Below, piece after piece: positions 4,366-64,000 of a DNA stretch of 64,000 nt. The notes beneath the pieces were generated by a model. It was not told the origin of the DNA, did not search any database, and was given only the letters and a program-made list of their open reading frames with translations. How positions within the stretch are numbered: the stretch's first letter is position 1; each line of letters opens with the position of its first letter. This DNA comes from an uncultured Spirochaetota bacterium (GTDB taxonomy: Bacteria; Spirochaetota; Spirochaetia; SZUA-6; CAVTHK01), in contig CAVTHK010000003.1 in assembly GCA_963734495.1 (NCBI GenBank), positions 128,001 through 192,000 of the forward strand, written 5' to 3'. The translations under genes and the position numbers were made by a program.

Positions 4366-4382
4366 TGCAGTTCTCCCCCGGA

Positions 4383-5445: not shown

Positions 5446-5530
5446 TGCGTATCTCCTTTGCGCTCCAGACTATCGGACAACGGGGCGGCCGCGCAAGGAA
5501 GCGCCGTGCTCCCGTGTGCCCCCGCGGGCG

Positions 5531-6326: not shown

Positions 6327-6631
6327 CCGGGTCCTCTCGCGCCCTTTTCGCGGCAGGGCTTCGCGATACGGCCGGCCGAGGGTACACCGTACGCTGCCGC
6401 TCCCGCAAACGCCCCGCCTGGTCCCCCTGATCCCCCGTGATCCCCGCGGAAACGGCCCCGCCGGCCGGGCGCAGGCTCCCCGGGATTGTGGAGAGCCTGA
6501 TAATACTGTTAAATTAAAGCTCCATCTCGCCGTTATATAATATGAGGTGACGCACCCGGTGCCCAGACGCGGTGGAGCTTCGTTGCAGGCCGGGGTATCC
6601 CGGATCAGAGAGGGAAGCAGCGGCAGTCCAT

Positions 6632-7688: not shown

Positions 7689-7699
7689 GGCCGCAAGCG

Positions 7700-8308
7700 T
7701 CAGCGCAGCCGTCCGTTCGCGATGTCGTCCACCACCCGCCAGTAAAGATCGTGCTCGGCCGCGAGGACTCGCTCGGCCAGAGACTGCGGGGTGTCTCCCG
7801 GGAGCACGGCGACCCTGGCCTGGCGGGCCACAGGTCCATGGTCGTAGTCCTCGTCCACGAAGTGCACGGTCACTCCGCTCTCCGCGTCGCCCGAGCGCAG
7901 CACCGCCTCGTGAACTCGCGGCCCGTACATGCCCTGCCCGCCGTACCGGGGGAGCAGGGCGGGGTGGATGTTGAGGATCCTCCGGGGGTACCGCCTCACG
8001 ATCTCGGGCGGCAGCTTCTTCATGTAGCCGGTGAGCAGGATCAGCTCGATGCGCTCCTCCGCGAGCAGCGCGAGGAGCGCCCGCGCCAGCTCGCCCGCGC
8101 CGGGGTGGGTGCGGCTCGACAGGTGCAGCGCGCGGATCCCTCGCGCGCGCGCGACGGCCAGCGCTCCCGCGTCGCTGTTGTTGCTCACCACGAGCCGCAC
8201 CTCGGCGTTGCGCAGGCTCCCGTCGTCGATGCGAGCCAGGATCGCGGCGAGATTGCTCCCGCGGCCCGAGGCGAAAGCGGCTACGTTCACGATCTCAAGA
8301 GCTAACAC
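7700..8308 (-). CDS. purN: Phosphoribosylglycinamide formyltransferase
   Basis: FASGRGSNL, LTGYMKKL, ILNIHPALLP.YGG.GMYG, GVTVHFVDEDYDHGP and EH motifs in an intact ORF. Confidence 0.96.
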   Translation of the reverse strand: MLALEIVNVAAFASGRGSNLAAILARIDDGSLRNAEVRLVVSNNSDAGALAVARARGIRALHLSSRTHPGAGELARALLALLAEERIELILLTGYMKKLPPEIVRRYPRRILNIHPALLPRYGGQGMYGPRVHEAVLRSGDAESGVTVHFVDEDYDHGPVARQARVAVLPGDTPQSLAERVLAAEHDLYWRVVDDIANGRLR

Positions 8309-8485
8309 GCGGGTGCCCTCCGGTCAACCGGCAGAAAGCCAGACGAGGAGCGCCCCGGTGTGATATGCCTGTGCGGAGGCGATATACTGGATGCTGCCGC
8401 CGCGGCCGCGACCGGCCCTGGCGCAAGGCCCGGCGAGTACGCCGGGCATGGGACCTGGCGAAGACGCCAGGTCGTAGGAGGGACA

Positions 8486-9228
8486 ATGAGACGGAGGATG
8501 GCGCTGGCGGCGGTGGCTGCTGCGGCAGCCCTGCTGCTGAGCTCCTGCATCGGGGTCGAGAGCCGCGTGACGTTTCACAACGACGGATCGGGAGTGCTGA
8601 AGATCGAGTACAGGATCGCAAAGTCGCTCGCGGATCTCGGCAAGGAGGGGACGTCGCAGGTTCCGCTGCCCGTCGACGAGCAGGAGCTGCGCAAGGCGCT
8701 GAGCGACGCCAAGGGCGTCAAGCTGATCGGGACCAGCCGCCGCGAGGATGAGAAGGACGTCTACATCACCGCGGAGGTCGCTTTCGATCGCATCGAATCG
8801 CTCGCGGAGGTCGACGCGTTCAAAGACATGCCCATGAGCCTCGAGAAGTCGGGGAACGACTGTCGTCTTCCGGCAGGTGATCTCCGCCCGCCCCGCGGCG
8901 CCGCAGGCGATCGAGGCCGCGGGAGCAGCGGCCCCGGCGGCCGGGGCCGCCGCGGGGACCGCAGAGGCGGGCGCGCCGACCGCTCCGGCGGCCGAGGCCG
9001 CCGCGGCGACAGGCGAGTCGGCCGCTCAGTCCGACAAGGAGCTCGCCGCGATGTTCTCGGCCCTTTTTGAAGGCTACGAGCTCGTCTTCTTCGGTGAACG
9101 CGCCGCGGCCGATCAAGTCGAGCAGCGCCGGAGAGATTTCGGCCGACCGGAGGACCGTGACCTACCGGCTGCCGGTCGAAAAGGTGGTGGAGCTCCCGCC
9201 GGAGACCGCCTTCACCGTGACCTGGTAG
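8486..9228 (+). CDS. Lipoprotein, LppM/DUF3153-like, with an Ala-rich insertion (frameshifted)
   Basis: AGGAGG RBS; signal peptide and lipobox MRRRMALAAVAAAAALLLSSC; then IGVESRVTFHNDGSG. The C-terminus reads ...SADRRTVTYRLPVEKVVELPPETAFTVTW-stop. Confidence 0.7.
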
Positions 9229-9260
9229 CGGAGGGGGATCCCGGGAGCCGCCCGCCGTCG

Positions 9261-11100
9261 CTACGGTTTCTCGTCGAGGAACTGCCGCTCGTAGAGCTCG
9301 CGGTACAGCCCGCCCCGGGCCATCAGCTCGTCGTGACTGCCGCGGTCGACGATGCGGCCGTCGCTCAGCACGCAGGTGAGGTCGGCGCGGCGCACGGTGC
9401 TCAGCCGGTGCGCGATGACGACCGAAGTGCGGCCCGCGAAGAGCCTCGAGAGCGCGTCCTGGATGAGCGCCTCGGTGAGCGTGTCGACGCTGGCTGTCGC
9501 CTCGTCCAGGATGAAGATCCGCGGGTCCGCGAGCACCGCGCGGGCGATGCAGATCAGCTGCCTCTGCCCGGTCGACAGGTTCGACCCCGCCTTCGCGGAC
9601 GACGGTGCGGTACGCGTCGGGCATCGCTTCGATAAAGTCCGCGGCGTTGGCCGCCCTGGCCGCGCCGCGGATCTCCGCATCGGTCGCACTGCGGCCGCGC
9701 AAAGGCGATGTTGTCGCCGATCGTCCCGGAGAACAGGAACGGGTTCTGCGACACGAGGCCCATGCGGCTGCGCAGCGCCTGCTGGCGGAAGCGCCGCACG
9801 TCGATGTCGTCGACGAGGACGCGGCCCGCGCGTCGCGTCGTAGAAGCGCAGGATCAGGTTCGCGATCGTCGTCTTGCCCGAGCCCGTCGGCCCGACCAGC
9901 GCCACCACGCTGCCCGGCTCGACGGCCAGGTCGATGTCGTGCAGGACGGGGAGCCCCTTGCGGTAGGCGAACGAGACGCCGCGCAGCTCGATGCGGCCCC
10001 GCAGCCTGCGAGGGCTCCAGGCGCGTCGGGGGCGTCCTGGATTTCCGGCTCGGTGTCGAGAAGCGCGAGCACCTTTCTCGCCTCCCGCCATGGCCGCCTG
10101 CATGGTCGTGTAGTTCTGGCTGATCTCCTGTATCGGCTGGAAGAAACGGCCGACGTAGGCGATGAAGGCGACGAGGGTCCCCATCGGTCACCTCGCCCGA
10201 CGTCGCCCAGCGGCCCGCCGAACCACAGCACGACCGCGGTCGCCAGCACCCCGAGAAAGTCGACCATCGGCAGGAAGGTGAACGAGAGGCTCATCGCCTC
10301 GATGTTCGAGTCGCGATTGGACTGGTTCGCCTGGTCGAACTTCTGGCTGCTCGCCTCTTCGCGGCCGAAGGCCTGGATGACCCTCATGCCCGCGATGTTC
10401 TCGGCGAGGTCGCCCACGACGGCGGCGATCCTGCACGCGCGTGTTGCGGTAAGGCGCTCTTGGCGCGGCGCGCGAACCACCAGTCGCGGCGACCATGAGG
10501 GGCAGGACCGAGAACGCGAGCAGGGCGAGGCGCGGCTCGATCCAGAGCATCACGGCCACGATCGCCGACCAGGACGACGCTGTCGCCCACGAAGGTGACG
10601 AGACCCTGCGAGAGGAACTGGTTGATGACCGACACGTCGTTGATGACGCGCGACACGGTTACGCCGATGATCTCGTGGTCGTGGTAGCCCAGGTGCAGCC
10701 GCTGCAGATGGTCGAACAGGCGGCTGCGCAGACTCCGAGCACGTCTCTGGCCGATGACCGAGAGCAGCTGCTGCTGGCCCGGCGCCCGTGATGAAGAGCG
10801 CGACGAACGCAGCGAGAAGCAGCAGCGACTGGCGCGCGAGCCCGGCGGCGTCGCGCGAGGCGATCGTCCGGTCTATGGCCGCGCGGACGAGCAGGGGGAT
10901 GACGAGGCTCAGCCGCGAGTACGCCAGGACCAGGACGAGGGCCGCGGTCATCTGACGCCAGTGGGGACGAGAAACCGCAGCAGCCGCGGAGGCGATCTTG
11001 ACGGTCGAACGTCTTTTCCTCGCCCTCGTGACCGTAGGCGTGGAGCGCTCCTCGGCCGCCCGGACCTCCGCCGTGGCCGCCTGCCGATCGCGAAGCTCAT
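9261..11100 (-). CDS. ABC exporter, fused permease/ATP-binding subunit (second subunit of a heterodimer; frameshifted)
   Basis: SRVINDVSVIN, ENIAGMRVIQAF, FFQPIQEIS, GPTGSGKTT, LSTGQRQLICIARA, LDEATASVD and IAHRLST. Confidence 0.9.
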
Positions 11101-12928
11101 GCGACGTCCTCCCGCGCCCGGCAGCCGCGCCGACGTCGCCCGTCTCGCCGAGCGCGCAGCTGCCGATTGTAGATGTCGACATATACGCCGCAGGAGGCGA
11201 GCAGCCCGGCGTGGGTGCCGCGGCCGACGATGCGGCCGTGGTCGAGGACGAGGATCTGGTCCGCCCTGCGGATGGTCCCGATGCGGTGGGCGATGACAAA
11301 GGTCGTGCGCCCCTCCATGAGGCTCTGCAGGGCCTTCTGGATCAACTGCTCGGTCTCCGTGTCGACGCTCGCGGTCGCGTCGTCGAGGATCAGAATGCGC
11401 GGGTCCTGCAGCAGGGCGCGGGCGATCGCGATCGCGCTGCTTCTGCCCCCCGGACAGCGTGTCGCCTCGTTCGCCGACGACGGTGTCGTAGCCTTCGGGC
11501 ATGGCCGTCGATGAAGTCGTGAGCCTGCGCCGCCTTGGCGGCTTCCACGACCTCGGGCTCCGCGGCCTCCGGCCTGCCGAAGCGCAGGTTCTCGCGCACA
11601 GTCGTGGCGAACAGCGTGGTGTCCTGCAGCACGATTCCGACGTGCACGCGCAGCGAGGCGAGGGTCACGCGGCGGATGTCCGTGCCGTCGACCAGGACGC
11701 GGCCTTCCGTCGGATCGTAGAAGCGGGGCACCAGGTTGACGACGCTCGTCTTGCCGGAGCCTGTCGTGCCGACGAGGGCGATCACCTCGCCGGGCAGCGC
11801 CGTCGAAGCTGATCTCCTCGAGCACGCGCTCGCGGCCGAAGTAGGCCAGGCTCACCTGGTCGAAGATCACCTCGCCCGCGCGGCGCCGAGCGGGCGCCGC
11901 GTCCGGGGCGTCGCGGACCTCGGAGTCGGCGTCCAGGATCTCGAAGATCCGCTCGCCCGACGACGAAGCGATGCTCACGGCCGGGATCACGTTGCCGAGA
12001 CGCCTGATCGGCCGCACGAGCTGGTCACGTACGTGGAAAAGGCGACCAGCTCGCCGAGGGAGAGCCGCTCGCGGATCACGAGGAGCCCGCCGAACGCGAT
12101 GATGGTCACGGTGCTCAGGTTGGCCAGGAAGTCGAGCAGCGGCGTGTTCCACGCCTGCATCTCGCGCCGCCTGCACCGACTGCTCGAGCCAGCCTGCGTT
12201 CTCGCGTTCGAAGCGTCGGATTCCTCCGCTCCTCCTGCGCGAACGCCTTGACGACCCGCGCGCCGCGCAGGTTCTGCTCCACGCGGTTGGTGAGGCGGCC
12301 GAGGGAACGCTGGATCTCGAGCGACAGCGGCCGGTAGCGCGCCCCGAACCTCACGCGCCCGCCAGACAAGCAGAGGGGCGTCGGGACGAGCGCGAGGGCG
12401 GCCAGCAGCGGGTTCATGGCCACGAGAAAGACGGCGGTGCCCGTGAGCAGGAACAGGCCCTCGACGAGGCGCAGAAACGCGCGGCCCGTCAGGAAGCGCA
12501 CGCGATCGACATCCTGGATGGAGCGTGCCAGCAGGTCGCCGGTCTCGGCCTGGTCGTGGATAGGCAAAGGAGAGGCTCGCGAGCTTCGCGTGGATGGCGT
12601 TGCGCATGTCGTAGGCCACGCCCTGCGACGCGATCTCCGACCAGATGCCCTCGAGGTAGGTGAGCACGCCGCGCAGCGGCGGTCAGCGCGAGCAGCAGGA
12701 GGATCGCGCCCCCGAGGAGGCGCTGGTCCGCGCGGCGGATGCCCCGGTCGATGATCCAGCGGATGAACTGCGGCGTCGCGAGCGACAGGCCCGTCGCCAC
12801 AGGAGGGCCAGGTAGCCTGCGGCGGTCAGCCGCCAGTAGGGCCGGAGAAAGCCGAAGCAGCGCAGGAGCACGCCGCCCGGCGACGACGCGGAGGCTCGGC
12901 GCGGGCCGGCTTCGGTCGCGGCGCTCAC
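11097..12928 (-). CDS. ABC exporter, fused permease/ATP-binding subunit (first subunit of a heterodimer; frameshifted)
   Basis: [62 protein letters not shown] (degenerate Walker B) and IAHRIGT. Both ends overlap neighbouring genes. Confidence 0.9.
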
Positions 12929-50857: not shown

Positions 50858-52823
50858 CTATCCGGCGCGATGTGCGTCGCCACTGGCTGCCCCCGTGAAC
50901 TGGCTGTAGTAGAGCTCGGCGTAGAACCCGCCGCTTGGAGCAGCAGGTCCTTGTGATTCCCCATCTCGATGATGCTGCCGTTGTTCATGACGAGGATGGT
51001 CTCGGCGTCGCGGATCGTCGACAGCCGGTGCGCGATCACGAAGCTCGTTCTCCCCTTCATGAGCTCCTGCATGGCCTTCTGGATGTGGACCTCGGTCCTC
51101 GTGTCGACGCTGCTGGTGGCCTCGTCGAGGATGAGGATCGCGGGGTCGGCCAGGATGGCGCGCGCGATCGTGAGCAGCTGCCTCTCGCCCTGCGAAAGCG
51201 TCGAGGCCTCCTCGTTCAGCACCGTACTGTAGCCCTCCGGCAGGGCCCTGATAAAGTGGTCCGCGTGGGCGGCCCTGGCCGCCCGCACGATCTCCTCGTC
51301 GCGTGGCTCCCTCCCTGCCGTAGGCGATGTTCTCCCTGATGGTCCCGTTGAAGAGCCAGGTGTCCTGGAGGACCATGCCGAACATCGTGCGCAGGCTGCC
51401 GCGCCGCAGGTCGCGGATGTCGATGCCGTCCACCGTGATCCTGCCGGAGTCGATCTCGTAGAACCGCATCAGGAGGTTCACCAGCGTGGTCTTGCCCGCC
51501 CCGGTGGGCCCGACGATCGCAATCGTTTGCCCCGGCGCGACGTCGATGCTCATGTCCTCCATGAGCGGGGCGTCCGGCGAGTAGCCGAACCTGACGTGGT
51601 CGAACTTGACCGCGCCCCGGGGCGAATCGATGACCCTCGCGTCCGGGGCCTCGGGGACCTCCTCGGTCTCGTCGAGGAGCTCGAAGACCCGCTCCGCCGA
51701 TGCGATCGTGGATTGCAGGATGTTGGCGATGCTCGCGGTCTGGATGATCGGCTGCGTGAACTGCCGCGAGTACTGGAGGAACGCCTGCACGTCGCCGAGC
51801 TCGATCAGCCTCTTCGTGACGTATATGCCGCCCATGACGGAGACGATCACGTAGCCGATGTTGTTCACGAACCGCATCATCGGGAAAGATGAGGCCCGAC
51901 ACAAACTGCGCGCGCCAGGCGGCGCGGTAGAGCCGGTCGTTGATCTCGCGGAACTCCTGCACCGACCTCGCCTCGTGGCGGAACGCCTTGACCACCTTGT
52001 GGCCCGTGTACATCTCCTCGATGTGCCCGTTGAGCTCCCCGAGCACCCGCTGCTGGGCGACGAAGTGCTTCTGCGAGTGCGCGGGCGATCGTCGAGGTGC
52101 CGACGAAGGACATCGGGCAGGGTCACGATCGCGATGACGGTGAGCATCGGACTGATGGACAGCATCATGACGACGACGCCGAGGATGGTGCAGACCGAGG
52201 TGATCAGCTGCGTCATGCTCTGCTGCAGCGTCGAGCTGATGTTGTCGATGTCGTTGGTGACGCGGCTCATGATCTCGCCGTGGACGTGGGAATCGAGGTA
52301 CTTGAGGGGGAGCCGCGCGAGCTTGTCGTTGGCGTCGCGGCGCATGTCGAACACCGTGAGCTGCGAGACCGCCGGCCATGATGTTCTGCTGCACGAAGCT
52401 GAAGAACGGCGCTGGCGAGGTAGAGCCCGAGCAGCGCCGCGAGGATCGACCCGATGTACTTGAAGTCGATCGTCGGTACCGTCTGGTGCATCCGGTGGGC
52501 CGCGATCTTGGCGATGATCCCGTGAAAGAGCCTGGTCGTGGCGTTGCCCATGATCTTGGGGCCGAGGATGCTGAACGCCGTGCTGAGGACCGCGAACACG
52601 ACGACCGTGACGATCTGAGCGGTGTGCGGCCTCAGGTAGACCATGAGCCTCTTGAGGGTCCCGAGGAAATCCTTGGGCTTCTCGAGCGACGACCGCGAGC
52701 GGACCGCGGCCGGTGAACGCGCCCATGCCGCCCGGCCGCCCGCCGGGCGGTCTGCCCGAAGAACCCGGGCGCCGTCGCCGGCCGCGCCGCGCCCGCCGCT
52801 TCCGGCCGTCGGTCCCCGCTCAC
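50858..52823 (-). CDS. Heterodimeric ABC exporter subunit 2 (TM288-like; frameshifted)
   Basis: [73 protein letters not shown] and IAHRLST. Confidence 0.93.
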
Positions 52824-54547
52824 GAGAGCTCCTCCTCCGAAAGCTGCGACGCGACGATCTCCTGGTAGACGCGGCAGGTCCGGTAGAGGTCGCGGTGCGT
52901 ACCCATCCCGGCGATGCGGCCGTCGTCGAGCACGATGATCCGGTCGGCGTCCATGATGGTGGCGACCCTCTGTCCGACGATGATCACGGTGGAATCGGCG
53001 GTTCGGCTCTTCAGGGCGGCGCGCAGCCTCGCGTCCGTCCTGAAGTCGAGGGCCGAGAAGCTGTCGTCGAATATGTAGATCTCCGGCCGGGCTACGATCG
53101 CGCGGGCGATGGAAAGCCTCTGCTTCTGTCCGCCGGAGACGTTGGTGCCGCCCTGCGCGATGATCGCGTCGTACCCCGCCTCCATCGCGTCGATGAACTC
53201 GGTCGCCTGGGCGATCCCTGCCGCCTCCCGCATCTCGGCGTCGCTCGCGTCGAGCTTGCCGTAGCGGATGTTGTCCCCGATCGTGCCGGAGAACAGGACC
53301 GTGGCCTGCGGCACGAGCCCGATCCTGGCGCGCAGCTCGTCCTGCTTGATCTGGCGCACGTCCACGCCGTCGACCTCCACGGAGCCGTGCTGCACGTCGT
53401 AGAAGCGCGGGATCAGGTTGATGAGCGTCGACTTGCCGGAGCCCGTGCTCCCGATGATCGCGACCACCTCTCCGGGCCGGGCGGAGAACGAGATGTTCCT
53501 CAGCGCCGGCTCCTCGGCGCCCGGGTAGCGGAAGGTCACGTCCTTGAACTCGATGAGGCCCCTTCGCCCGTTGACACCCGCGCTCATCGGGGGGTCGACG
53601 ATCCCGGGCACCGTCTCGAGGACCTCGTTGATCCTGGCCGCGGATGCCTGCGCCCGCGGGATCGTGACGAACATCAGCGAGGCCATCATGAGCGAGAACA
53701 TGATCTGCGTCGCATACTGCAGGAACGCCATCATGTCGCCCACGTTCGTGGTCCCGTGCTCGATCCTCACGCTGCCGAACCAGACGACGGCGATGGCGGT
53801 CAGGTTCATGATCAGCGTCATGATCGGCATCATCGAGGCGATGAGCTTTGTCACGGCGACGGTGGTCTCGGTCAGGTCGACGTTGGCGTCGCGGAAGCGC
53901 GCCTTCTCGTGGTCGATGCGGTCGAACGCGCGGATGACCCGCATACCCGTCAGGGTCTCGCGCAGGACGAGGTTGATGCGGTCGATCTTCTTCTGGATCG
54001 CCTGGAACAGGGGGAAGGCTTTCGTCGCGAGGATGACGACCACCGCGGCGAGGAGGGGCAGCACGACGACGAACACCCAGCCGAGCTGCCGGTCCTTGGA
54101 GATCGCGAGGATGATGCCGCCGATGCACGTCGTGGGCGCCATGATCATCTGGCGCATCATCATCAGCGTCACCGACTGGACCTGGGTGACGTCGTTGGTC
54201 GTCCGCGTCACGAGCGACGGGGTCCCGAGCCTGTCGAACTCACGCAAGCTGAAGGTCGAGACGTGCGTGAAGATCTCGTCGCGGAGGATCCGGCCGTAGC
54301 CCATGGAGACCTGCGACGACAGGTACATGCCGACGACCGCGCAGACGGTCCCGCCCCCGGTCACGAGGAGCATCAGGCCGCCGACCCTCACGATGTAGGC
54401 GATGTCGCCGTTGATGATCCCGGAGTTGACGATGTCCGACATCAGGTTGGGCAGGTAGAGCTCGGCCATCGCCTGGGCGAACACCAGGACGATCACCGCG
54501 ATCACGGCAATCCTGTACGGCCTCAGGAACTTCAGCAGCTTGCCCAC
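52820..54547 (-). CDS. Heterodimeric ABC exporter subunit 1 (TM287-like)
   Basis: ELYLPNLM, SLVTRTTNDV, RETLTGMRVIRAF, GSTGSGKST, VSGGQKQRLSIARA, FDDSFSALD and VGQRV (degenerate site). Intact ORF from GTG at 54547. Confidence 0.94.
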   Translation of the reverse strand: MGKLLKFLRPYRIAVIAVIVLVFAQAMAELYLPNLMSDIVNSGIINGDIAYIVRVGGLMLLVTGGGTVCAVVGMYLSSQVSMGYGRILRDEIFTHVSTFSLREFDRLGTPSLVTRTTNDVTQVQSVTLMMMRQMIMAPTTCIGGIILAISKDRQLGWVFVVVLPLLAAVVVILATKAFPLFQAIQKKIDRINLVLRETLTGMRVIRAFDRIDHEKARFRDANVDLTETTVAVTKLIASMMPIMTLIMNLTAIAVVWFGSVRIEHGTTNVGDMMAFLQYATQIMFSLMMASLMFVTIPRAQASAARINEVLETVPGIVDPPMSAGVNGRRGLIEFKDVTFRYPGAEEPALRNISFSARPGEVVAIIGSTGSGKSTLINLIPRFYDVQHGSVEVDGVDVRQIKQDELRARIGLVPQATVLFSGTIGDNIRYGKLDASDAEMREAAGIAQATEFIDAMEAGYDAIIAQGGTNVSGGQKQRLSIARAIVARPEIYIFDDSFSALDFRTDARLRAALKSRTADSTVIIVGQRVATIMDADRIIVLDDGRIAGMGTHRDLYRTCRVYQEIVASQLSEEELS

Positions 54548-54802
54548 CGACCACCGTCCCCCGGCACCGGGCGACCGGCATCCGGTGCGCCGGACGCCGA
54601 CGGTGTAGCATACCCCGAATCGCGCCCCCGTGTGAGCAGGGGGGCGCCGGCGCCCTGGACCGAACCCGCCGCATTTCCCGCGCGCGCGGCGCCTGCCGTG
54701 CCCCGCCGGCGGCGGCGCTTCACGCGGCTGCCGGGCCACCCGGGCAGTTGCGCGTCCGCGCCATATCGGTTATGAATTCTCAAGTACAAAGGGAGGTCTT
54801 TC

Positions 54803-55375
54803 ATGGAGCTCAAGGGATCCCAGACCGAAAAGAACCTGTTGGGGGCGTTCGCCGGGGAGTCCCAGGCCCGGAACAGGTACACGTATTTCTCCTCCAAGGC
54901 GCGCGAGGAAGGCTTTATGCAGATCGCCGCGATCTTCGAGGAGACCGCGAACCAGGAGAAGGAGCACGCCAAGCGCTTCTTCTCCATGCTCAAAGGCGGC
55001 GACGTCGAGATCGTGGCGGCGTTCCCGGCGGGAGTCGTCGGAAGCACCGCCGACAACCTCAAGGCTGCCGCCGGCGGCGAGAACCACGAGTGGACGAAGT
55101 TGTACAAGGACTTCGCCGAGGTCGCGCGGAAGGAAGGGTTCGATTCGGTCGCCCGGCTGTTCGACGCCATCTCGGTGGCTGAGAAGCAGCACGAGAAACG
55201 TTACCTCGGCTTGCTCGCCAACGTCCAGAACGGCAAGGTCTTCAAGAAGGACAAGAAGGTGGTGTGGCGCTGCACGAACTGCGGGTACCTGCACGAAGGT
55301 CCCGAGGCGCCGGCGGCCTGTCCCGCGTGCGCGCACCCTCGCTCTTACTACGAGGTGCTCGGCGAAAACTGGTAA
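54803..55375 (+). CDS. rbr: Rubrerythrin
   Basis: TEKNLLGAFAGESQARNRY, EKEHA, GENHE, AEKQHE and rubredoxin-like WRCTNCGY...CPACAHP. GGGAGG RBS. Confidence 0.97.
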   Translation: MELKGSQTEKNLLGAFAGESQARNRYTYFSSKAREEGFMQIAAIFEETANQEKEHAKRFFSMLKGGDVEIVAAFPAGVVGSTADNLKAAAGGENHEWTKLYKDFAEVARKEGFDSVARLFDAISVAEKQHEKRYLGLLANVQNGKVFKKDKKVVWRCTNCGYLHEGPEAPAACPACAHPRSYYEVLGENW

Positions 55376-55510: not shown

Positions 55511-55777
55511 ATGACCCGCTCACTTTACTTCACGACGGGAGCCGACGGGGCGCTGGTGGCGGCCACCACGATGGAGCACGCGGTCCTGGAGGTGCTGACC
55601 GTCCCCGACGACTATGACGACGCGGCGGCCCTGCAGATCGCGCAGAGCGTCTTCGGCTCGGGGGTGATCGAGACCCGCGCGCGCACGGGGACCCGGGGAG
55701 GGCCCGTCCGTATCACCTGGGCGGCTCTGGTGGAGAGGGGGATGGAAGCCGGCGTGCTTGGGCAGGAAGACGCCTGA
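55511..55777 (+). CDS. Small hypothetical protein (88 aa)
   Basis: GAGGTG RBS, GC3-biased codons and ordinary composition (MTRSLYFTTGADG...). Confidence 0.55.
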   Translation: MTRSLYFTTGADGALVAATTMEHAVLEVLTVPDDYDDAAALQIAQSVFGSGVIETRARTGTRGGPVRITWAALVERGMEAGVLGQEDA

Positions 55778-58700
55778 GCGGCCCGGCGGCGGGCCGGACC
55801 CCACCCTCCCGCCCATCGAGCAGGAAGCGTCCGTGCGCTTCCGTTGCCGTTCCCCTTGCCGTTGCCGATTTCCCGCCGCCTTGACGGCGTCCGCCAGCCG
55901 CTGCGCCTGAAGTAGGAACGTCTCCAGGCGCGCCTCCTCGATCTGCGTAAAGACGTTTCCGTCGAGCTCCACGAAGAGGCACGGCAGCACGTCGACGTCC
56001 TTCCTGATCTGCCCGAGCTCGATCTTCCGTCCCGCGTTCCGCGCCGCCCGTTCCTTGCCCTCGACCGTCATCTCGACGGCGGCCACCGCCTCGGTCATGC
56101 GCGCGTTCATGCACCCGAAAGGACCCACGGCGATGATGCCGCAGTACTTGCCGGCGAGATGGTGGAGGGCGGCGCCGGAGGAGAGGCCCGGCTCCCCGGT
56201 GAGCTGCAGCGGGATGAAGTGCGTGGAGTGGGCGAGGTAGGCCCTGATGTCGATGAGCTCGCGCTCGTACAGCCCGCTCCTCGCGAGGAGACGCTTGACC
56301 CTGCGCTCGTGATACAGCTGCACCAGGCCCGAGACGAGCGCCTCCAGTCTGCCGGCGAGCTTCAGCTTCGCCGTGTACAGCCCCATGCCGCGCATAAAGT
56401 CCGTGTAGCGGACCCATTCGGACACGGGGGCGTCCAGCATGACGAATCCGTGCTGCGCCAGCCGCTCGGGGATCCCCATCAGGCAGAAATGGTCCCGGCG
56501 CACGAATATCTCGCCCACCACCCCGATGTACCTGGCTTCGCGGAGCGGCGCGCGGAGCCTGATCGCGGACAGCGCCTTGACGGCTTCCCGCAGCTGCCCG
56601 TACGTGGAGCGGCGGACCGTGCCGTCAAAGGTGCCCAGGAGCTTGCGCGTTTCCGTCTCGAAGATCGCCATCGCGCGCTGCCTGTCCACCGCCAGGGCCT
56701 TGATGGCGGAGCGGACGTCGTCCAGGACGTCGAAGAGGTACAGCGCCTTGACCGCCTCCAGGCGGAACGGGACGCCCAGGCCCGCGTAGCCGTCGTCGTT
56801 CGACAGGAGAAGCATCGCGACGTCGCGCAGCCCCTGCTTCTCGATCATGGCGCGGATGAGGATCTCGTACTGGCCGACGCGGCAGCAGCCTCCGGCGTCC
56901 ACCATGATGACGAGGAGCTTCTCCGAGGGGTCGCTGCGGTGCTTGAGGTACCTGCGTATCTCCCCCAGGATGTTGATGATGGGCAGGCATTCCTTGTTCG
57001 TGGTGACGGCCCTGCCCAGGTCCAGGGCCTCCCTGTCGCAGACGGGCAGCGCCTCCGCGTTCCAGCCCATCCCGCGGAATACGGCGGCCATGCCCTCGGC
57101 GAAGAGGTCCCCCATCGAGGGGACCACGACCTTGACCCTGGGGTCTCTGACCGGGAAGCGCTCGCCGCCCGAATCGACGTAGAAAGCGCGGCCGGCGTGG
57201 TCGATCTCGGTGCGCGCCGCAGCGACGGCCGCCACCGGGTCCCTCACGGCGTCCCTGATCTTGACGTAGTTCCGCACGACGTCGAGGAACGCCTCGATCC
57301 TCGTGTTGACCCCCGCGTCGGCCGTGTGGGAGTCCACCTCGAGGGTGAGGGACGGCTTGGTCTGCATGAGGTCGCGGAAATGCGGCACCATCATGGAGTC
57401 GAGGGCGCAGAGGAAGTTGGTGAGATAGCAGCCGAAGAGCTGCGGGTGCCTCTTGACGATCCGCGCGGCCTTGATGATCTTCTGGCCCATCTCCCAGTAG
57501 GTGTCGCGGAAGTTCTCCTCCTCCTCGAGCGCGAGGAAGTCGAAGGGGATGATCTCGATGCCGCGGGACGCGAACTTGAAGGGGACCCCCTTGTTCGCCT
57601 CGTCGGTGAACGCGTTGTAGGGCCTGCCGAACAGGACCACGGCGATGCGGTCCGGGTCGGCCTCGAGCTCCGCGAGGATCCGCCTTCCCTCCGCCTTGAG
57701 CGCGGCGAAGAACTCCAGCTGCCTTTCCACCGCCAGCCCGTGCGCCCGCTTCGCCCGGGCTTCGTCGAAGCCCATCTCGCGGGCGATCTCGACGAATCGC
57801 TTCTCCTCGGCGCCGTAGCCCGTCATGAAATTGAGCGGCGGCGCGATGAGGCCGGGCGCGCCCGGGCGCGTCGCGGAGGAACGTCGCCCTCTGGTACCAC
57901 GGCTCTCCCTGAAGGAACATGCAGGTGGCCTGGTACTCGACGCGGTACTCCTCCTGCGGCGAGACGTGCATCTCCTTGATCTGGGGCATGAAGATGTAGT
58001 CCGGCTTCTTCGCGAGGAGGTCCTCGAACATGCCCAGCGCGATCTGGCCGGAGAGGCAGAAGCTGGTCATGCCCTTGTCGATGCCCGTCTGCCGCACGGT
58101 GTCCGGCATGACGATCCTGCAGCCCAGCTCCGTGAAGAAGGTCGAGTACATCGGGTAGAGGGTGTGCGTGTGGAACGAGCGGTTGATGCCGACGAGCGGA
58201 CCGGATGACGCGCAGCCCGCCGCGGGGCGGGGCGAAGAGCATCTCGGTGCGCTTCTCCACATGGTTGTACTTCGCGACTTCGTAGCGCACGTTGCCGGAT
58301 CCGGTTGTAGTACTTGTTGCAGGCGCCGCCGAAGGGGAACTTCTTCCCCGCGACGTGGATCATCGCGATCTCGCACTTGCGGTCGCAGTTCTCGGGCTGC
58401 CCCTGGCAGACGAAGCTCTTGCCGTGCTCCACTTCGCGCGCGGCGAGAGCTCGGACAGGTCGAAGCTCCCTCTGCTGCAGGAGACCCAGGGAAAGCATGT
58501 TCTTCAGCTCGAGGGCGACGCCGTACGCGCCCATCAGGCCCGGGTGAGGCGGCACCACGATCCTGCGGCCGATCATGCCCGCCATGGCGATCGGCACCGC
58601 CTTGTTGTAGCAGACGCCCCCCTGCATGAAGACCTTGGCGCCGGTGTGCCGCGAGCCGCGCACGCGGTTGGCGTAGTTGATGCAGACCGAGTACACGAGC

Positions 58701-60208
58701 CCCGCGACGATGTCTTCCTTGCCGATGCCTTCCTGGAACGCCGTGGTGATGTCGGAGGAGATGAACGCCGCGCACTGGTCGGAGAAGTTGGGCGGGCCGC
58801 TTCGCGCGGAGCGCGATGTCGGCGATCTCCTCCATCGGGACGCCGAGGGTCTCCTGCGCGGACTCCTCGAGGAAGCTCCCGGTGCCCGCCGAGCAGGCCT
58901 CGTTCATGGCGTAGTCGGAGGCGACCGAGTTCGTGAGGTAGGTGTACTTCGCGTCCTGGCCGCCGATCTCGTAGATCGTGTCCACTTCGGGGTCGAAGTG
59001 CGCCGCGGCGCGCGCGTGGGCGATGATCTCGTTGATGATGCCGTCGGTGCCCGCGTGGAGCCCCGCGATGTACCTGCCGCTTCCCGTGACGCCCACGCCG
59101 ATCACGTCCACGCCGACGTCCCCGAGCTGCTCCGCGATGGACGCGGTAGCAGTCGCGGGACGCCTTGACGGGGTCCCCGTTGGTGCGCAGGTACACCGAC
59201 TTGAGGATCTTCTCGTCCGCCGCCCGCATCAGCACGGCCTTCGTGGTCGTGGAGCCGACGTCGAGGCCCAGGATGCACTCGTCGCCCGCCCGCGGCTCCT
59301 CGAAGGGCATCTCCTTGAAGTCCACCATCGACGCGAAGTCCGAGATGGGCTTGTGGAACTCGAAGGAGGAGCCGGCGTCCCGGTAGTACTGTCCCCGCCG
59401 CCGGCAGCGCGGTCCTGCCGCGTCCTGAGGGCCCACAGCGCGGCGCCGAGCGCCTCGAAGTACGGCGCTTCCCGCGGGACGGTCACGTCGAAGCTCTCCC
59501 TGAGGAACCCGATGACCACGTCGTTGCGCGCGGTCCCCCCGACGATCAGCACCCTGCGCGCGTTGATCTTGACGAGGAGCTCCTCGATCTTCTTGGCGAT
59601 CATGCGGGCGAGCCCGGCCACGACATCCGCGACCGGCTCCGCCCTTGTTCAGGGCGTGGGTGCAGTCGGACTTGCAGAACACGGAGCAGCGGCCGGAGAG
59701 CTGGTGGGGGTGCGTCGACGTCCGCGCGAGCCTCACCGCCTCTTCGACCGAGACATTCATCCTGCCGGATCTGCTGGAGGAAGAACTCGCCGGTGCCGGA
59801 CGCGCACTTGTTGCCCGAGCCGATGCGCGACACCTTGCCCTTGGCGTCCATCTGGTAGACGAGAAAGCTCTCGGCGCCGGCCGAAACGACCGCGTCGAAG
59901 CGGGCGTCGCCGCCGGCCACGAACGCCAGCGCGTACTCGGTGGCCTCGGGCTCGGTGATGGAAGGCGTCGCGAGGAGGCGCCGGAACTTCCGCCCGGTGG
60001 CGCCGAGGTACTTCCCCTTCAGGTCGCGCCCGTCGAGGCACGCGGCGAGGACCGTCTTGGGATCGCCGTCGTGCTGTCGCTGCACGATGTCGACGACTCG
60101 CACCGACGCCTGCGCGCGACTCGATCTCGACCAGCGAGAGGGTGGAAGCGCCGAGGCACAGGCCCGACCGCGCGGGTGGCCTCTTCGTTTGTACTGCAGG
60201 TTGCCCAT
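55520..60208 (-). CDS. Large fused CoA-activase/reductase (2x BadF/BadG/BcrA/BcrD + DUF2229 + dehydratase-like), PlsA/Ger-like, copy 1 (frameshifted; true 3' end probably near 55.8 kb)
   Basis: GNKCASGTGEFF, SGRCSVFCKSDCTHALNKG, LDVGSTTTK, EIGGQDAKY, MNEACSAGTGSFLEE, FMQGGVCYN, CDRKC, GGACNKY, GRPYN, TNFLCALDS, DSHTADAGVNTRIEAF, KECLP, GCCRVGQY, VGEIFVR and PFGCM. Confidence 0.88.
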
Positions 60209-60312
60209 GGATCGCTCAATTCATACACCGGATCGACTCACCCGTGAAAGCCCCGCGGGCGTCCCCCGGGCCTTGCGTCGCGGCCCGCGGGTGTGACGAG
60301 GCATGCAGTCCC

Positions 60313-61503
60313 GTGAAGACGAACCTTTCGATCCTTCCCGTCATGCTCCGGTCGACGCCCGACTACGTCTGGCCGATCGCGAAGATGTTCGCGAAGAAGG
60401 CGCTGGCCGAGCAGATCGACTACAGGCGGGGATCGGACCGCAGCAAACGACTCGCCTTGGTCACCTTTCGCATAACTCCTCTCTGCAATCTGAGTTGCGT
60501 CATGTGCTGCCAGCGCGGCAAGACGGGCGTCCTCAAAGGCAAGTACGCGCTCGAGGAATCGAAGAAGATCGTCCCCATCCAGCGGTACAAGGACCTGGTC
60601 GACGAGCTCAAGGGAGTCGACCCCGTCTTCTACGTGTGGGGCGGCGAGCCTTTCCTCTACCCGGACTTCATGGACCTCGCGGCCTACATGGCGCGCAAGT
60701 CGAGGGCGTTCACCGTGAACACCAACGGGACCTACCTCGCCGCGAACGCCGAGCGGATCGTCCGCGACCAGTGGACGGGGGTCTACGTGTCCCTCGACGG
60801 GACCGAGGAGGTCAACGACCCCATACGCGGCAAGGGCACCTACAGGCGGGTGGAGGAGTCCTTCCGGGCCCTGAACGCCGAGAAGAAGCGGCAGGGATCG
60901 AAGCTTCCTTACCTCGGCATGGTCACGACCATCAGCAACCTGAATTACCGCCACCTGGAGGAGACGGTGCTGAACGCCCGCCAGTTCGGGCTTTCATGGC
61001 ACATGATCAACCTGGGGACGTACACCGACCAGGCGGCCGTGAGCCGGCAGCAGGCCTTTATGAAGGAGACCTTCGGCATCGAGGTCAACTCGATGCAAGG
61101 GTTCCTCAACGGCTACAACGAGGGCATCGACGGCGCCGAGTTCGCGGAGATCCTGGCAAGGGTGCAGCGGCTCGACTGCGGGCACCCCGTGATCACGGTG
61201 CCGGTGGAGCGGGCCGACCGGATCGAGAAGTACTATACCGACTTCGAGGCCTCGCCCAAGCATCACTGCATCTGCCCCTGGATACAGGTGGACATCGATT
61301 ACAACGGCGACGTGCACCTCTGCATAGACTACCCCGAGTACACGATCGGAAACATCAAGCAGGACGGGCTCCTCTCGATCTTCAACAACGAGAAGGCGGC
61401 CGCCTTCCGCCGCAAGCTCCTGGCCGCGCCCGACGGCATCTTTCCCGGCTGCAGCCGCTGCTATCAGCACATGCTGATGGGCCGGACGAACAAGCGTTTC
61501 TAG
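60313..61503 (+). CDS. Radical SAM protein with C-terminal SPASM/twitch domain
   Basis: ITPLCNLSCVMC (CxxxCxxC), WGGEPF, NTNG, VSLDG; C-terminal CICPW...DYNGDVHLC...IGNI...CSRC. Confidence 0.92.
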   Translation: MKTNLSILPVMLRSTPDYVWPIAKMFAKKALAEQIDYRRGSDRSKRLALVTFRITPLCNLSCVMCCQRGKTGVLKGKYALEESKKIVPIQRYKDLVDELKGVDPVFYVWGGEPFLYPDFMDLAAYMARKSRAFTVNTNGTYLAANAERIVRDQWTGVYVSLDGTEEVNDPIRGKGTYRRVEESFRALNAEKKRQGSKLPYLGMVTTISNLNYRHLEETVLNARQFGLSWHMINLGTYTDQAAVSRQQAFMKETFGIEVNSMQGFLNGYNEGIDGAEFAEILARVQRLDCGHPVITVPVERADRIEKYYTDFEASPKHHCICPWIQVDIDYNGDVHLCIDYPEYTIGNIKQDGLLSIFNNEKAAAFRRKLLAAPDGIFPGCSRCYQHMLMGRTNKRF

Positions 61504-61517
61504 CAGGACGGAGCGGC

Positions 61518-64000
61518 GTGGAAGCCAACAGAGGTTACGGAGTCTGCATCGGCGCCTCGACGATCAGCGCGGTGGAGATCGCGCGCGACGGCGGTGTCGA
61601 CGGCGCAGCCGGGGGCTCCGGGCGGCCGGCCCGGATCGTCAGGGTCATCCGCAAGGACCACGAGGGGAACCTCAGGGCCGCCTTCAGCGAGGTCGTGGCC
61701 GATCTCGCCGTCGACGGCGGGCCGATCCTCGTGACGGGACGCGCCTTCAGACACTCGGTCGCCATCCCGTCGATCAGCGAGCCCGAGGCGGTCGAGCACG
61801 CCCTGGAGTACCTGCGGGGCAGGCACGACAAGACCTACGACGCCGTGGTGTCCGCCGGCGGGGAGACCTTTGTCGTGTACGCCCTCGACCGGGCGCAGAA
61901 GGTCTCCGGCATATCGACCGGCAACAAGTGCGCGTCCGGGACCGGCGAGTTCTTCCTCCAGCAGATCAGGCGCATGGATCTGGGGGTCGAGCAGGCCATC
62001 GAGCGCGCGCTCACAGGGACCCCCTATGCGGTGAGCGGGCGCTGCTCGGTCTTCTGCAAGTCCGACTGCACGCACGCCCTGAACAAAGGGGTCCCGATCG
62101 CCGACGTGACCGCGGGCCTCTGCCGGATGATCGCGCAGAAGATCGTCGAGATTCTCGACAGGGTGCCCCACGAGAGCACTCTCGTGATCGGAGGCACCGC
62201 CCGCAACGCCGCCGTGGTCGAGCGCCTGAAGGCCGCCGTGCCCGGCGTCGAGGTGCCGGAGGAGGCCGCCTACTTCGAGGCGCTCGGCGCGGCCATCGCC
62301 TCGCTCGAGCAGGGAAGCGCGCTTCCCGCCGCGCTCTTCGACCAGGGGCACGCGAGCTTCTCGTTTCTGCCGCCGCTGCGCGCGGCCGAGCACCTGGTGT
62401 CCTTCAAGACCATCGAGTTCGCCGCGGCGCGGCCCGGAGATCGCTGCATCGTCGGGCTCGACGTCGGCTCCACGACGACCAAGGCGCTGCTCCTGCGCCT
62501 CAGCGACCACGCGTTTCTCGCCTCCGAGTACCTTCGCACGAACGGCAACCCGATCGAAGCCTCCCGCGCCTGCTTCGCCTCGATCCTTGCGAAGCTCGGC
62601 GGGACCGACGTCGAAATCGTCGGGATCGGCGTCACCGGCTCGGGCAGGATGATCGCGGGCCTCTATGCTCTCACCGACGGCATCATCAACGAGATCATCG
62701 CGCACGCCGCCGCGGCCGCGTACTTCGACCCCGAGGTCGACACGATCTTCGAGATCGGCGGGCAGGACGCCAAGTACACCTACCTCACGTCGACCGTCGC
62801 TTCGGATTACGCGATGAACCTGGCGTGCTCGGCCGGCACGGGCTCCTTTCTCGAGGAGTCGGCCAGGGAGTCGCTCGGCATCGCTACCGAGGAGATCGCG
62901 GAGATCGCGATGCGCGGCGAGAAGCCCCCGAGCTTCAACGACCAGTGCGCGGCGTTCATCTCATCGGACATCAAGAACGCGACGCACTCGGGGATCGGGC
63001 TCGCAGACATCGTCGCCGGGCTCGTGTACTCGATCTGCTTCAACTACATCAACCGGGTCAAGGGCGCCCGGCCGGTCGGCAGAAAGATCTTCATGCAGGG
63101 GGGCGTCTGCTACAACCGCGCGGTCCCCATCGCGATGGCCGCCCTCGTGCAGAAGCCCATCGTGGTGCCGCCGGAGCCGGGACTCATGGGCGCCTTTGGC
63201 GTCGCGCTGGAGCTCGAGAAGCGGCTCGGCCTCGGGTTGATCAAGGAGGACCGCTTCGACCTGCGCTCCATCATCGACCGCACGGTGTCGAACGAGAAGC
63301 CCTTTCCTTGCGCCGGCGGAAGAGAGAAGTGCGACCTGAAGTGCTCGATCAACCGCATCAGGGTCGCCGGCAGGGTGTTCCCCTTTGGCGGGGTGTGCAA
63401 CCGCTACTACAACCTCGGGCACCGCGCGGACGCCGCGGAGGACGCCGACGGCGTGGAGGCCGCGACGGATTACGTTTCCCTCCGCAACGACCTCATGTTC
63501 CGCAAGTACGCGCGGCAGGGGCGCGTCGACGCGCGCGCGCCCGTGATCGGGCTGCCGACGACCTTCTTCACCATGAGTCTCTTTCCCCTCTTCCACAATT
63601 TCTTCTCGTCGCTCGGGTGCCGCGTCCTGCTGCCCGACGCCGTCGAGAAGGACGCGGCCAACCACCTCGTGACCTCCATGTGCTACCCCGCGGAGATCGC
63701 GACGGGCCTCTACGAGAACCTGGCGAAGAAGAACCCGGACTGGGTGTTCCTGCCGCTCGTAAAGGAGATGTACGTCCCGGGCGGCAACCACGCTTTCGAC
63801 TACAACGCGACCTGCGGCCTGAGCATGGGAGCCGGGATCTACCTCAGGCAGGCGTTCAGGGGCAAGGAAGGATACGCGAGGATCCTCTCGCCGTTCATGA
63901 ACCTCAGGGAGGGCCTCGAGAACGGCGAGGAGGCTTTTGTCGGAGTCGGCGCCGAGCTCGGGTTCTCGCGGGAGCGAGGCCGCGAGCGCGTTCCGCGCCG
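61518..64000 (+). CDS. Large fused CoA-activase/reductase, PlsA/Ger-like, copy 2 (runs off the window edge)
   Basis: Manual translation from GTG at 61518: GVCIGASTIS, HEGN, SISEPEA, GNKCASGTGEFFLQQIRRM, SGRCSVFCKSDCTHALNKG, LDVGSTTTK, EIGGQDAKY, MNLACSAGTGSFLEE, FMQGGVCYN, CDLKC, GGVCNRY and MCYPAEIA. It starts 14 nt after the radical SAM stop. Confidence 0.9.
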   Translation, partial: MEANRGYGVCIGASTISAVEIARDGGVDGAAGGSGRPARIVRVIRKDHEGNLRAAFSEVVADLAVDGGPILVTGRAFRHSVAIPSISEPEAVEHALEYLRGRHDKTYDAVVSAGGETFVVYALDRAQKVSGISTGNKCASGTGEFFLQQIRRMDLGVEQAIERALTGTPYAVSGRCSVFCKSDCTHALNKGVPIADVTAGLCRMIAQKIVEILDRVPHESTLVIGGTARNAAVVERLKAAVPGVEVPEEAAYFEALGAAIASLEQGSALPAALFDQGHASFSFLPPLRAAEHLVSFKTIEFAAARPGDRCIVGLDVGSTTTKALLLRLSDHAFLASEYLRTNGNPIEASRACFASILAKLGGTDVEIVGIGVTGSGRMIAGLYALTDGIINEIIAHAAAAAYFDPEVDTIFEIGGQDAKYTYLTSTVASDYAMNLACSAGTGSFLEESARESLGIATEEIAEIAMRGEKPPSFNDQCAAFISSDIKNATHSGIGLADIVAGLVYSICFNYINRVKGARPVGRKIFMQGGVCYNRAVPIAMAALVQKPIVVPPEPGLMGAFGVALELEKRLGLGLIKEDRFDLRSIIDRTVSNEKPFPCAGGREKCDLKCSINRIRVAGRVFPFGGVCNRYYNLGHRADAAEDADGVEAATDYVSLRNDLMFRKYARQGRVDARAPVIGLPTTFFTMSLFPLFHNFFSSLGCRVLLPDAVEKDAANHLVTSMCYPAEIATGLYENLAKKNPDWVFLPLVKEMYVPGGNHAFDYNATCGLSMGAGIYLRQAFRGKEGYARILSPFMNLREGLENGEEAFVGVGAELGFSRERGRERVPR

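Follow-up and report, generated by a model that had tools for sequence, protein, structure and literature searches.

The closest described relatives of the genes considered here are reductases of bacterial ether-lipid synthesis. PlsA/PlsR of Clostridium perfringens (CPE1194-1195) and the single-gene PlsA of Enterococcus, Lactococcus, and Bifidobacterium are composed of Act1, Act2, Red1, and Red2 modules of the BCR/HAD family with conserved [4Fe-4S] cysteines, the single-gene form being 4.2-4.9 kb long (PMC12838417). Ger, described in Thermotoga maritima (Tmari_0479) and Desulfatibacillum alkenivorans (SHJ90043), is a single polypeptide of about 1400 amino acids from anaerobic lineages, in which two BcrAD_BadFG domains and DUF2229 are accompanied by small additional D/H modules (Sahonero-Canavesi et al., 2022, PMC13159169). 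PlsA and Ger are reported to be indistinguishable by sequence, and whether the product is a vinyl or an alkyl ether to be unpredictable (PMC13274423). We analyzed a 64,000-nucleotide stretch of the genome of an uncultured Spirochaetota bacterium (contig C3 of genome G000, positions 128001-192000; hereafter, the window), at the right end of which two giant genes of this type flank a gene encoding an enzyme of the radical S-adenosylmethionine (SAM) type (rSAM). The source genome comprises 5.4 Mb in 18 contigs, is 83% complete, and has a G+C content of about 67%. The features of the locus are as follows:

About 55810 to 60208, minus strand: copy 1, a PlsA/Ger-type giant gene (placed by tblastn with the orthologue from genome G001 and by Pfam; the 3' end is approximate)
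60209 to 60312, no strand: divergent intergenic region of 104 bp, between the ATG of copy 1 (60208, minus strand) and the GTG of rSAM (60313)
60313 to 61503, plus strand: radical SAM/twitch gene, about 396 amino acids (Pfam Radical_SAM and SPASM; frame intact)
61518 to 64000 in the window and on to about 65927 of the contig, plus strand: copy 2, the second PlsA/Ger-type giant gene (Pfam and frame mapping)

The preliminary description of this DNA gave the divergent intergenic region as about 100 bp and the distance from rSAM to copy 2 as 14 nt, and both values agree with the measured ones, the rSAM stop being at 61503 and the copy 2 start at 61518. The boundary it gave for copy 1, 55520, is the end of a frame held open by a frameshift, and the true end lies near 55810.

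Compared with Ger by published architecture, the giants share the single long polypeptide, the two activase domains, DUF2229, the anaerobic lineage, and perhaps the small modules (PMC13159169); compared with PlsA/PlsR by description, they share the module types, the cluster cysteines, and a similar gene size (PMC12838417). They differ from Ger in being part of an expansion specific to the order, in which a genome usually has several paralogues, and copy 1 differs in being paired with a radical SAM gene; a literature search found no such pairing for Ger and no paper on linkage of rSAM with Ger or PlsA genes. Two Ger homologues per genome have been noted in some Bacillota (PMC13159169), and among 28 Spirochaetota metagenome-assembled genomes (MAGs) from the Black Sea, 19 had Ger homologues and 8 had homologues of the membrane-spanning lipid synthase Mss (PMC11868695).

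What is new at this locus is the recurrent linkage, in multiple arrangements, of an uncharacterised twitch-type rSAM family with ether-lipid-type reductases and other glycerolipid genes in spirochaetes. The three genes together are not a conserved unit. We put the probability at about 0.5 that the locus encodes two functional PlsA/Ger-family giants and a twitch-type rSAM that works on the same lipid pool.

Linkage of the radical SAM family with lipid genes

The neighbourhoods of rSAM were compared, with two neighbours on each side, in 45 spirochaete loci at 42% identity or more, and in 47 loci when G000 and the same-genus genome G001 (99% complete, the source of the intact copy 1 orthologue) are added. 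A gene of the activase, activase, DUF2229 architecture (two BcrAD_BadFG domains and DUF2229; hereafter, BBD) adjoins rSAM in six of the 45 (L018, L019, L021, L024, L045, and L057), which makes 8 of 47. DUF2229 genes are nevertheless present in 10 of 10 rSAM-bearing genomes that lack such adjacency. Because these adjoining BBD genes come from three clades and are arranged divergently, upstream, or downstream, at least three independent associations of rSAM with BBD genes are implied by the sequences. According to a rough estimate, which is not a computed test, a random gene would lie within two genes of one of about five BBD genes in well under 1% of cases. The linkage of rSAM to PlsA/Ger-type genes that had been pointed out earlier therefore recurs above this rough chance level, and not as a three-gene unit.

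Some lipid gene adjoins rSAM in 11 of the 47 loci; the locus of genome G023 has none and may duplicate one of the 45. In Treponema MAGs, genes for a diacylglycerol (DAG)-kinase-like protein, an HAD hydrolase, and rSAM follow one another on the same strand (L046:3528-7080, L050:1323-4849, L051:3218-6852, and L057:267-8379), with a PlsC-type acyltransferase gene between the first two confirmed in L046, L050, and L057. In L057, a BBD gene is located 9 nt downstream of rSAM. The order in L019 and L021 is BBD, short-chain dehydrogenase (SDR), rSAM, and then a protein of about 300 amino acids without assigned function. A conserved protein of about 290-337 amino acids with shared His/Cys-rich blocks is encoded directly 3' of rSAM in four loci (L019:9718-10587, L021:8583-9545, L024:9524-10534, and L026:5141-6022); in L019 and L021 it closes the BBD-SDR-rSAM operon, no Pfam family was found in the L024 member, and no homologue was found in G000.

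The unit conserved around rSAM consists of rSAM and copy 1, and the clade of copy 2 normally stands alone. Between G000 and G001, only the 5.6-kb block of rSAM and copy 1 is syntenic (window 55858-61503 versus L014, contig C42 of G001), and the DNA on either side of it maps elsewhere or nowhere, which suggests either that rSAM and copy 1 travel together or that the genomes are heavily rearranged. Downstream of rSAM, G001 has a dnaE2-like gene, the corresponding region mapping to another contig of G000; with copy 2 as a query, only the copy 1 orthologue and a 33% identical paralogue were recovered from G001, and no copy 2 orthologue was found there. In G009, rSAM is followed by a copy-1-type gene on the same strand, whose product is 80% identical to the copy 1 protein of G001, and the copy 2 orthologue resides on another contig. 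The pair of rSAM and copy 1 is common to these three genomes, divergent in G000 and G001 and co-directional in G009. The flanks of 38 other BBD loci contained no rSAM of this family, with one 26%-identical match at E = 5e-4. The adjacency of rSAM and copy 2 in G000 is not an obvious misassembly, because one short-read contig bridges the end of rSAM (35 nt) into copy 2. As to the earlier expectation that rSAM would be conserved beside the giants, it holds for copy 1 in the three genomes and fails for copy 2, and the activase-rSAM-activase layout suggested as a pathway unit was found nowhere else by the neighbourhood search, given the dnaE2-like gene in G001, the separate contig in G009, and the 38 other loci.

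Giant PlsA/Ger-type genes and their paralogue clades

Two divergent giant paralogues, each with two BcrAD/BadFG domains and DUF2229, had been recognized in the preliminary description, and Pfam finds these domains in both. The intact G001 orthologue of copy 1 (1461 amino acids, L014:10734-15119) matches BcrAD_BadFG (PF01869) over two stretches at 4.1e-61 and DUF2229 (PF09989) at 2.4e-40; the same domains are present in the pieces of copy 1, which align with the orthologue at 79-90% identity in alternating frames from 60167 down to 55874 (tblastn). Copy 2, the N-terminal 822 amino acids of which form one frame within the window, matches PF01869 over two stretches at 9.7e-52 and DUF2229 at 3.8e-18, the latter domain being split by a frame change into two matches (69 and 63 bits). 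Identity between the copy 1 orthologue and copy 2 is 50.8% over 835 amino acids. Further parts of copy 1 are a four-cysteine linker between the activases and DUF2229, and the C-terminal half. DUF2229 was matched in the C-terminal halves of all 41 relatives. The dehydratase-like domain that had also been listed for copy 1 is less evident: HGD-D (PF06050) gives weak matches (E ≤ 1 in 28 of the 41 C-terminal halves, the best at 8.5e-07) and is not matched in the copy 1 orthologue.

In an alignment of 46 rows, cysteines occupy positions 134 and 173 in 44 and 45 of the 45 filled rows, positions 436, 476, 597, 604, 608, and 626 in 46 of 46, positions 713 and 758 in 45 of 45, and positions 929, 1069, 1104, and 1361 in 40-44 rows, which is every row filled there. 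The resulting layout comprises two activase pairs, the four-cysteine linker, two cysteines in DUF2229, and four in the C-terminal half. The copy 1 orthologue retains all of these cysteines, and so, as judged by eye, does copy 2 in the part that could be read. The reductase-region motifs quoted earlier as differing between the copies (FCLSGQIA and TCMFLQGE in copy 1, MCYPAEIA and TCGLSMGA in copy 2) are found in the translations, each with a cysteine present in 45 of 45 filled rows. The activase-activase-DUF2229 order is that published for both PlsA and Ger (PMC13159169), as the preliminary description held, and every family-invariant cysteine is kept; their sequences thus add two new proteins to the PlsA/Ger family.

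G000 contains four BBD genes: copies 1 and 2, one on contig C10, and one on contig C1, the latter two at about 30% identity. At E ≤ 1e-30, BBD matches occur in 34 of 41 genomes of the order, with up to six in some (matches are not copy numbers), and in none of the six genomes of one family. Trees of 46 proteins were built with LG+G4 at full length and with C20-PMSF over 811 N-terminal columns, in quick searches with SH-like approximate likelihood ratio test (SH-aLRT) support only, and the two trees agree on the groups. Clade A, to which copy 2 belongs together with its 74% identical G009 orthologue, has 13 rows from families f2-f6 and an SH-aLRT value of 100 in both trees. Clade B, monophyletic in the first but not the second tree, consists of second copies from many of the genomes of clade A. 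Copy 1 and its G001 and G009 counterparts constitute clade C (support 100), and clades D and E and three remoter clades were also resolved. The divergence between clades amounts to 25-30% identity at E ≤ 1e-80, and no conserved neighbour genes were found for clades A, B, C, and D.

A recent tandem duplication as the origin of copies 1 and 2 is rejected, since they are 51% identical and fall into separate clades, each spanning several families. Sequence comparison instead makes them old paralogues that were brought together secondarily. Several divergent BBD paralogues per genome are ordinary in this Spirochaetota order, reflecting an order-wide expansion, and the view of the two genes as a special local pair is accordingly given up. 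Two BBD paralogues of very different clades also lie in tandem on the same strand, about 150 nt apart and with no rSAM, in L151 (contig C203 of G017; 4263-8729 and 8883-11051), so that the window is not the only place where paralogues adjoin. In G000, the fourth BBD paralogue (L161, G000:C1:178000-196000; 5714-12166, minus strand) is in an open frame of 2151 amino acids with the first Pfam domain near residue 950; ahead of that domain lies either a long N-terminal extension or GC-rich DNA that simply happens to be open.

Proposed function and alternative explanations

If both giants and rSAM serve one lipid pool, the two fused activase domains of each giant would feed low-potential electrons to the DUF2229/HGD-D-like catalytic half, the whole acting as an ATP-driven, oxygen-sensitive iron-sulfur reductase. 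The catalytic half would convert an acyl ester of a membrane glycerolipid to an alk-1-enyl or alkyl ether, a lipid ester being the substrate presumed from the family. rSAM would act on the same lipids, and our guess is that it activates a C-H bond in an ether or ester glycerolipid, whether in the chain, the glycerol, or the head group. Copy 2, from a widespread stand-alone clade, would have come to lie 14 nt downstream of rSAM in this lineage, and the two are probably co-transcribed. From the recurrent adjacency to PlsA/Ger-type genes and from the lipid-kinase, HAD, and PlsC-type neighbours, a lipid role for rSAM is therefore plausible, if unproven.

The rSAM protein matches Radical_SAM (4e-16) and SPASM (PF13186, 4.4e-12). 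It has a single CX3CX2C motif (C45, C49, and C52), with about 57 residues ahead of it, and a C-terminal auxiliary-cluster region of the twitch/SPASM type, C306-X12-G319-X4-C324 ... C367-X2-C370. Among 73 homologues, C45, C49, C52, C306, and C324 never vary, and C367 and C370 hardly ever do. Four conserved auxiliary cysteines point to one auxiliary cluster, as in twitch domains, the full SPASM pattern having seven cysteines. Orthologues are 87% (G001), 69% (G009), and 51% (G023) identical. The family includes 1092 proteins at E ≤ 1e-10 among 7999 candidates scored, and the names of the best 120 of these, as well as the ESM Atlas, offer only the generic "radical SAM protein." It is concentrated in Spirochaetota, including termite-gut Treponema, and 43 of the 45 loci at 42% identity or more carry spirochaete titles. 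We know of no tested member. All NCBIfam matches are below their cut-offs, the best being N_Twi_rSAM (110.8 bits against a cut-off of 170 bits). A role in maturation of ribosomally synthesized and post-translationally modified peptides (RiPPs) does not fit the protein, as the residues before CX3CX2C leave no room for an N-terminal RiPP recognition element (RRE, PqqD-like), the usual size of which exceeds them; in the 45 loci, no conserved small family that could be the precursor peptide was found beside rSAM among open reading frames (ORFs) of at least 100 amino acids, the scope of this search.

The natural lipid-active comparison is Mss, a tail-coupling radical SAM enzyme of T. maritima (Tmari_0825) and T. 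ethanolicus (PMC13159169). Like rSAM, it comes from anaerobes, and it works on glycerolipids in the pathway proposed to include Ger. In the field, Mss homologues are called at E ≤ 1e-50 with at least 30% identity. The architecture of Mss is reported to be that of Tes, the archaeal tetraether synthase GDGT-MAS (PMC13274423), and Tes has two CxxxCxxC motifs (PMC8941075), unlike the single CX3CX2C of rSAM. The rSAM profile matches Tes (7tol) only over the generic core (positions 22-147, 3.3e-10, 13th of 42 matches). Hydrophobic regions near the C-terminus belong to the Mss/Tes architecture, and none is conspicuous in rSAM: no transmembrane segment appears in its hydropathy profile, and hydrophobicity over 19-residue windows peaks at the cluster motif and not at the C-terminus. 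Among the 80 best of 460 rSAM relatives, no title named Thermotoga, Thermoanaerobacter, or Dictyoglomus, a weak result as the scan depended on two motifs. The enzymes for bacterial ether and membrane-spanning lipids, among them the branched forms of glycerol dialkyl glycerol tetraethers (brGDGTs) used as palaeoclimate proxies, are partly known, and the steps still sought include the second ether bond, the vinyl-to-alkyl conversion, and alternative coupling enzymes (PMC13274423). The rSAM family, being located beside Ger/PlsA-type reductases, lipid kinases, and acyltransferases in wetland and termite-gut spirochaetes, is a clonable candidate for such a step, and the order-wide expansion, with at least four or five paralogue clades, is a natural set for finding what determines PlsA versus Ger chemistry. 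The boldest version, which we consider distinctly unlikely, is that rSAM is a new lipid-modifying enzyme unrelated to Mss/Tes that couples, cross-links, cyclises, or desaturates chains of the ether or ester glycerolipids made by the adjoining Ger-type reductases; wetland and peat Spirochaetota would then be a source of unusual ether lipids, possibly membrane-spanning and brGDGT-like, with the paralogue clades supplying sn-1, sn-2, or vinyl/alkyl specificity.

Several observations weigh against a shared lipid pool. First, the three-gene layout was found in G000 only, and in 36 of the 47 rSAM loci none of the genes up to two places away in either direction is a lipid gene. Second, the commonest partner of rSAM is an SDR gene directly upstream (11-12 of 45 loci; 11 of 84 upstream ORFs), with ABC exporters, aldo-keto reductases, NeuB, and a wide range of unrelated genes among the other neighbours. 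Third, with BBD genes present in 34 of 41 genomes of the order, co-occurrence is little informative. Fourth, the nearest solved relatives of rSAM, found by a profile of 73 sequences against the PDB (SkfB, CteB, BlsE, anSME, and BtrN), act on peptides, proteins, and sugars and not on lipids, and fusions of homologues with sugar-related domains point to sugar chemistry. Finally, the lipid assignment of the giants comes entirely from their family architecture: the profile of the C-terminal half found nothing in the PDB below E = 0.7, and the DUF2229 score of the copy 1 orthologue (139 bits) is below that of the C10 paralogue (198 bits), the spirochaete clades at this locus having the more divergent DUF2229.

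The alternative with most in its favour, unlikely though we hold it to be, is that rSAM modifies carbohydrates or cyclitols as a dehydrogenase, epimerase, or decarboxylase comparable to BtrN or BlsE; it would have no mechanistic tie to the giants and would have come beside them by operon shuffling, or would act at most on a glycolipid head group. BtrN, anSME, and BlsE (4m7t, 4k37, and 7vob) share with rSAM the one CX3CX2C near the N-terminus, the CX9-15GX4C motif, and the C-terminal cysteine region, with E-values from 2e-13 (BtrN twitch region) to 7.6e-19 (BlsE), and differ from it in that rSAM conserves four auxiliary cysteines only and in gene context (lipid genes and short-chain dehydrogenases). 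A homologous rSAM/SPASM domain follows an N-terminal family-2 glycosyltransferase (GT2) in P0121 (791 amino acids; 34% identity over 346 amino acids, the whole of rSAM) and is fused to a glucuronyl C5-epimerase-like domain in P0122 (823 amino acids; 23-24% identity). The SDR, aldo-keto reductase, and NeuB neighbours would suit a sugar enzyme, as would the 35 homologue loci at 27-37% identity, where other rSAM/SPASM genes, amidohydrolases, and GFO/IDH/MocA oxidoreductases were found and no lipid signal. Arguing against a sugar enzyme are the adjacency of BBD genes, which recurs in 8 of 47 genomes and involves three BBD clades in several gene orders, and the rSAM operons in which a lipid kinase and a PlsC-type acyltransferase are encoded; moreover, the fusions are rare (two clusters of one or two members each) and distant. 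Should rSAM turn out to act on sugars, all that would be left of the finding is the usual paralogy within an already described family.

It is also conceivable, if quite improbable, that the giants are radical enzymes of the wider BCR/HAD group acting on another substrate (acyl-CoA, an aromatic compound, or an unknown small molecule), with rSAM serving that pathway. Four paralogues in G000 and up to six matches elsewhere, which are not copy numbers, exceed what one lipid reaction needs; clades A and B are without conserved lipid neighbours; NCBIfam gives the giants generic activase matches only; and few family members have been tested, namely Ger of T. maritima and D. alkenivorans and PlsA of C. 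perfringens and three others (PMC13159169, PMC12838417). Nevertheless, as far as the cited parts of these papers go, the characterised fused BBD enzymes are all lipid ester reductases, the rSAM-BBD cluster of L057 includes a lipid kinase and a PlsC-type acyltransferase, and the divergence between the clades would probably pass the threshold used in the field for Ger homologues (E ≤ 1e-50).

A third possibility, very improbable in our estimate, is that rSAM is a maturase that installs a modification or cofactor on copy 1, as anSME or the rSAM maturase of tungsten enzymes does for its partners. The kinship to anSME (6e-16) and to TIGR04317 W_rSAM_matur (87.6 bits against a cut-off of 380 bits) and the tight pairing with copy 1 in three genomes would fit such a role, but most BBD genes, including all 38 other loci, are without an rSAM of this kind nearby, most rSAM loci have no adjoining BBD gene, and the characterised PlsA and Ger enzymes are reported to function in E. 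coli with no rSAM alongside (PMC13159169).

Frameshifts and flanking genes

The reading frames of both giants are interrupted in the assembly of G000. By one uniform method for G000/G001 gene pairs, in which a frame change counts as persistent when it extends over at least 30 nt, copy 1 has nine persistent changes in 4367 aligned nt (2.06 per kb), eight of them +1, compared with none in 1186 nt of rSAM and one in 3151 nt of dnaE2. The background, 26 gene pairs drawn from 70 of 156 long ORFs, has about 0.45 changes per kb (21 over 46.7 kb), 19 of the 21 being +1; they affect 10 of the 26 genes and are patchy, with single genes at 1.65 and 2.5 per kb. Copy 1 represents the high end of this patchy, assembly-wide error process. 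When copy 1 was aligned with the G001 orthologue at the DNA level, 31 gaps appeared, read as about 13 net single-base insertions in G000 when compensating pairs are discounted. In copy 2, comparison with an intact clade A orthologue and three-frame translation located three frame changes (about 63984-64011, 65167-65173, and 65717-65735).

Short-read contigs at 90% likeness or more were obtained from four wetland runs, of which the best contained 0.23 of the sampled words and none reached half, so that uncovered stretches are uninformative. Contigs of depth 4-6, one per run, are without one base at L001 3471, 4143, and 4763, the predicted sites being 3473, 4142, and 4764. Another contig has two gaps over L001 4266-4462, where insertions were predicted at 4391 and 4413, and one has two extra C at L001 10168 and 10178, corresponding to the second frame change of copy 2. 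The ratio of nonsynonymous to synonymous substitutions (dN/dS) between G000 and G001 is 0.19 for copy 1, 0.18 for rSAM, 0.21 for dnaE2, and 0.17 for an aldo-keto reductase gene. Because the +1 error type is assembly-wide, the short-read contigs bear out predicted sites, and the dN/dS of copy 1 is like that of intact neighbours, the frameshifts are assembly errors and both giants are intact genes in nature. That copy 1 is a decaying pseudogene, with only rSAM and copy 2 functional, is highly improbable: its rate of changes stands out from the background mean and from the clean adjoining 1.2 kb of rSAM, but the changes are of the same +1 type as the assembly errors, two background genes have comparable rates, the extra bases are absent from the short-read contigs at every predicted copy 1 site covered, and its dN/dS equals that of intact genes. 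Several copy 1 insertions lie beside CCGG- or GGCC-like strings, and a motif-dependent basecalling error might be behind the +1 insertions of G000.

On the left, the locus is flanked by a rubrerythrin gene (window 54803-55375, plus strand) and two adjoining ABC exporter genes (ABC_membrane and ABC_tran; 50858-54739, minus strand), the first of which is seemingly frame-broken; the rubrerythrin gene separates them from copy 1. On the right are VWA, PIG-L, and aldolase genes. ABC transporter genes were also observed near rSAM in six other spirochaete loci, with one pair (L056) having the full exporter architecture. A scan for sigma-70-like promoters found no sites at the locus, and an Rfam scan found no family, including in the intergenic region 60209-60312. 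Five terminator-like sites were found against 2.4 expected, all of them within genes. One short-read contig is without two single bases in the intergenic region, at L001 5298 and 5302.

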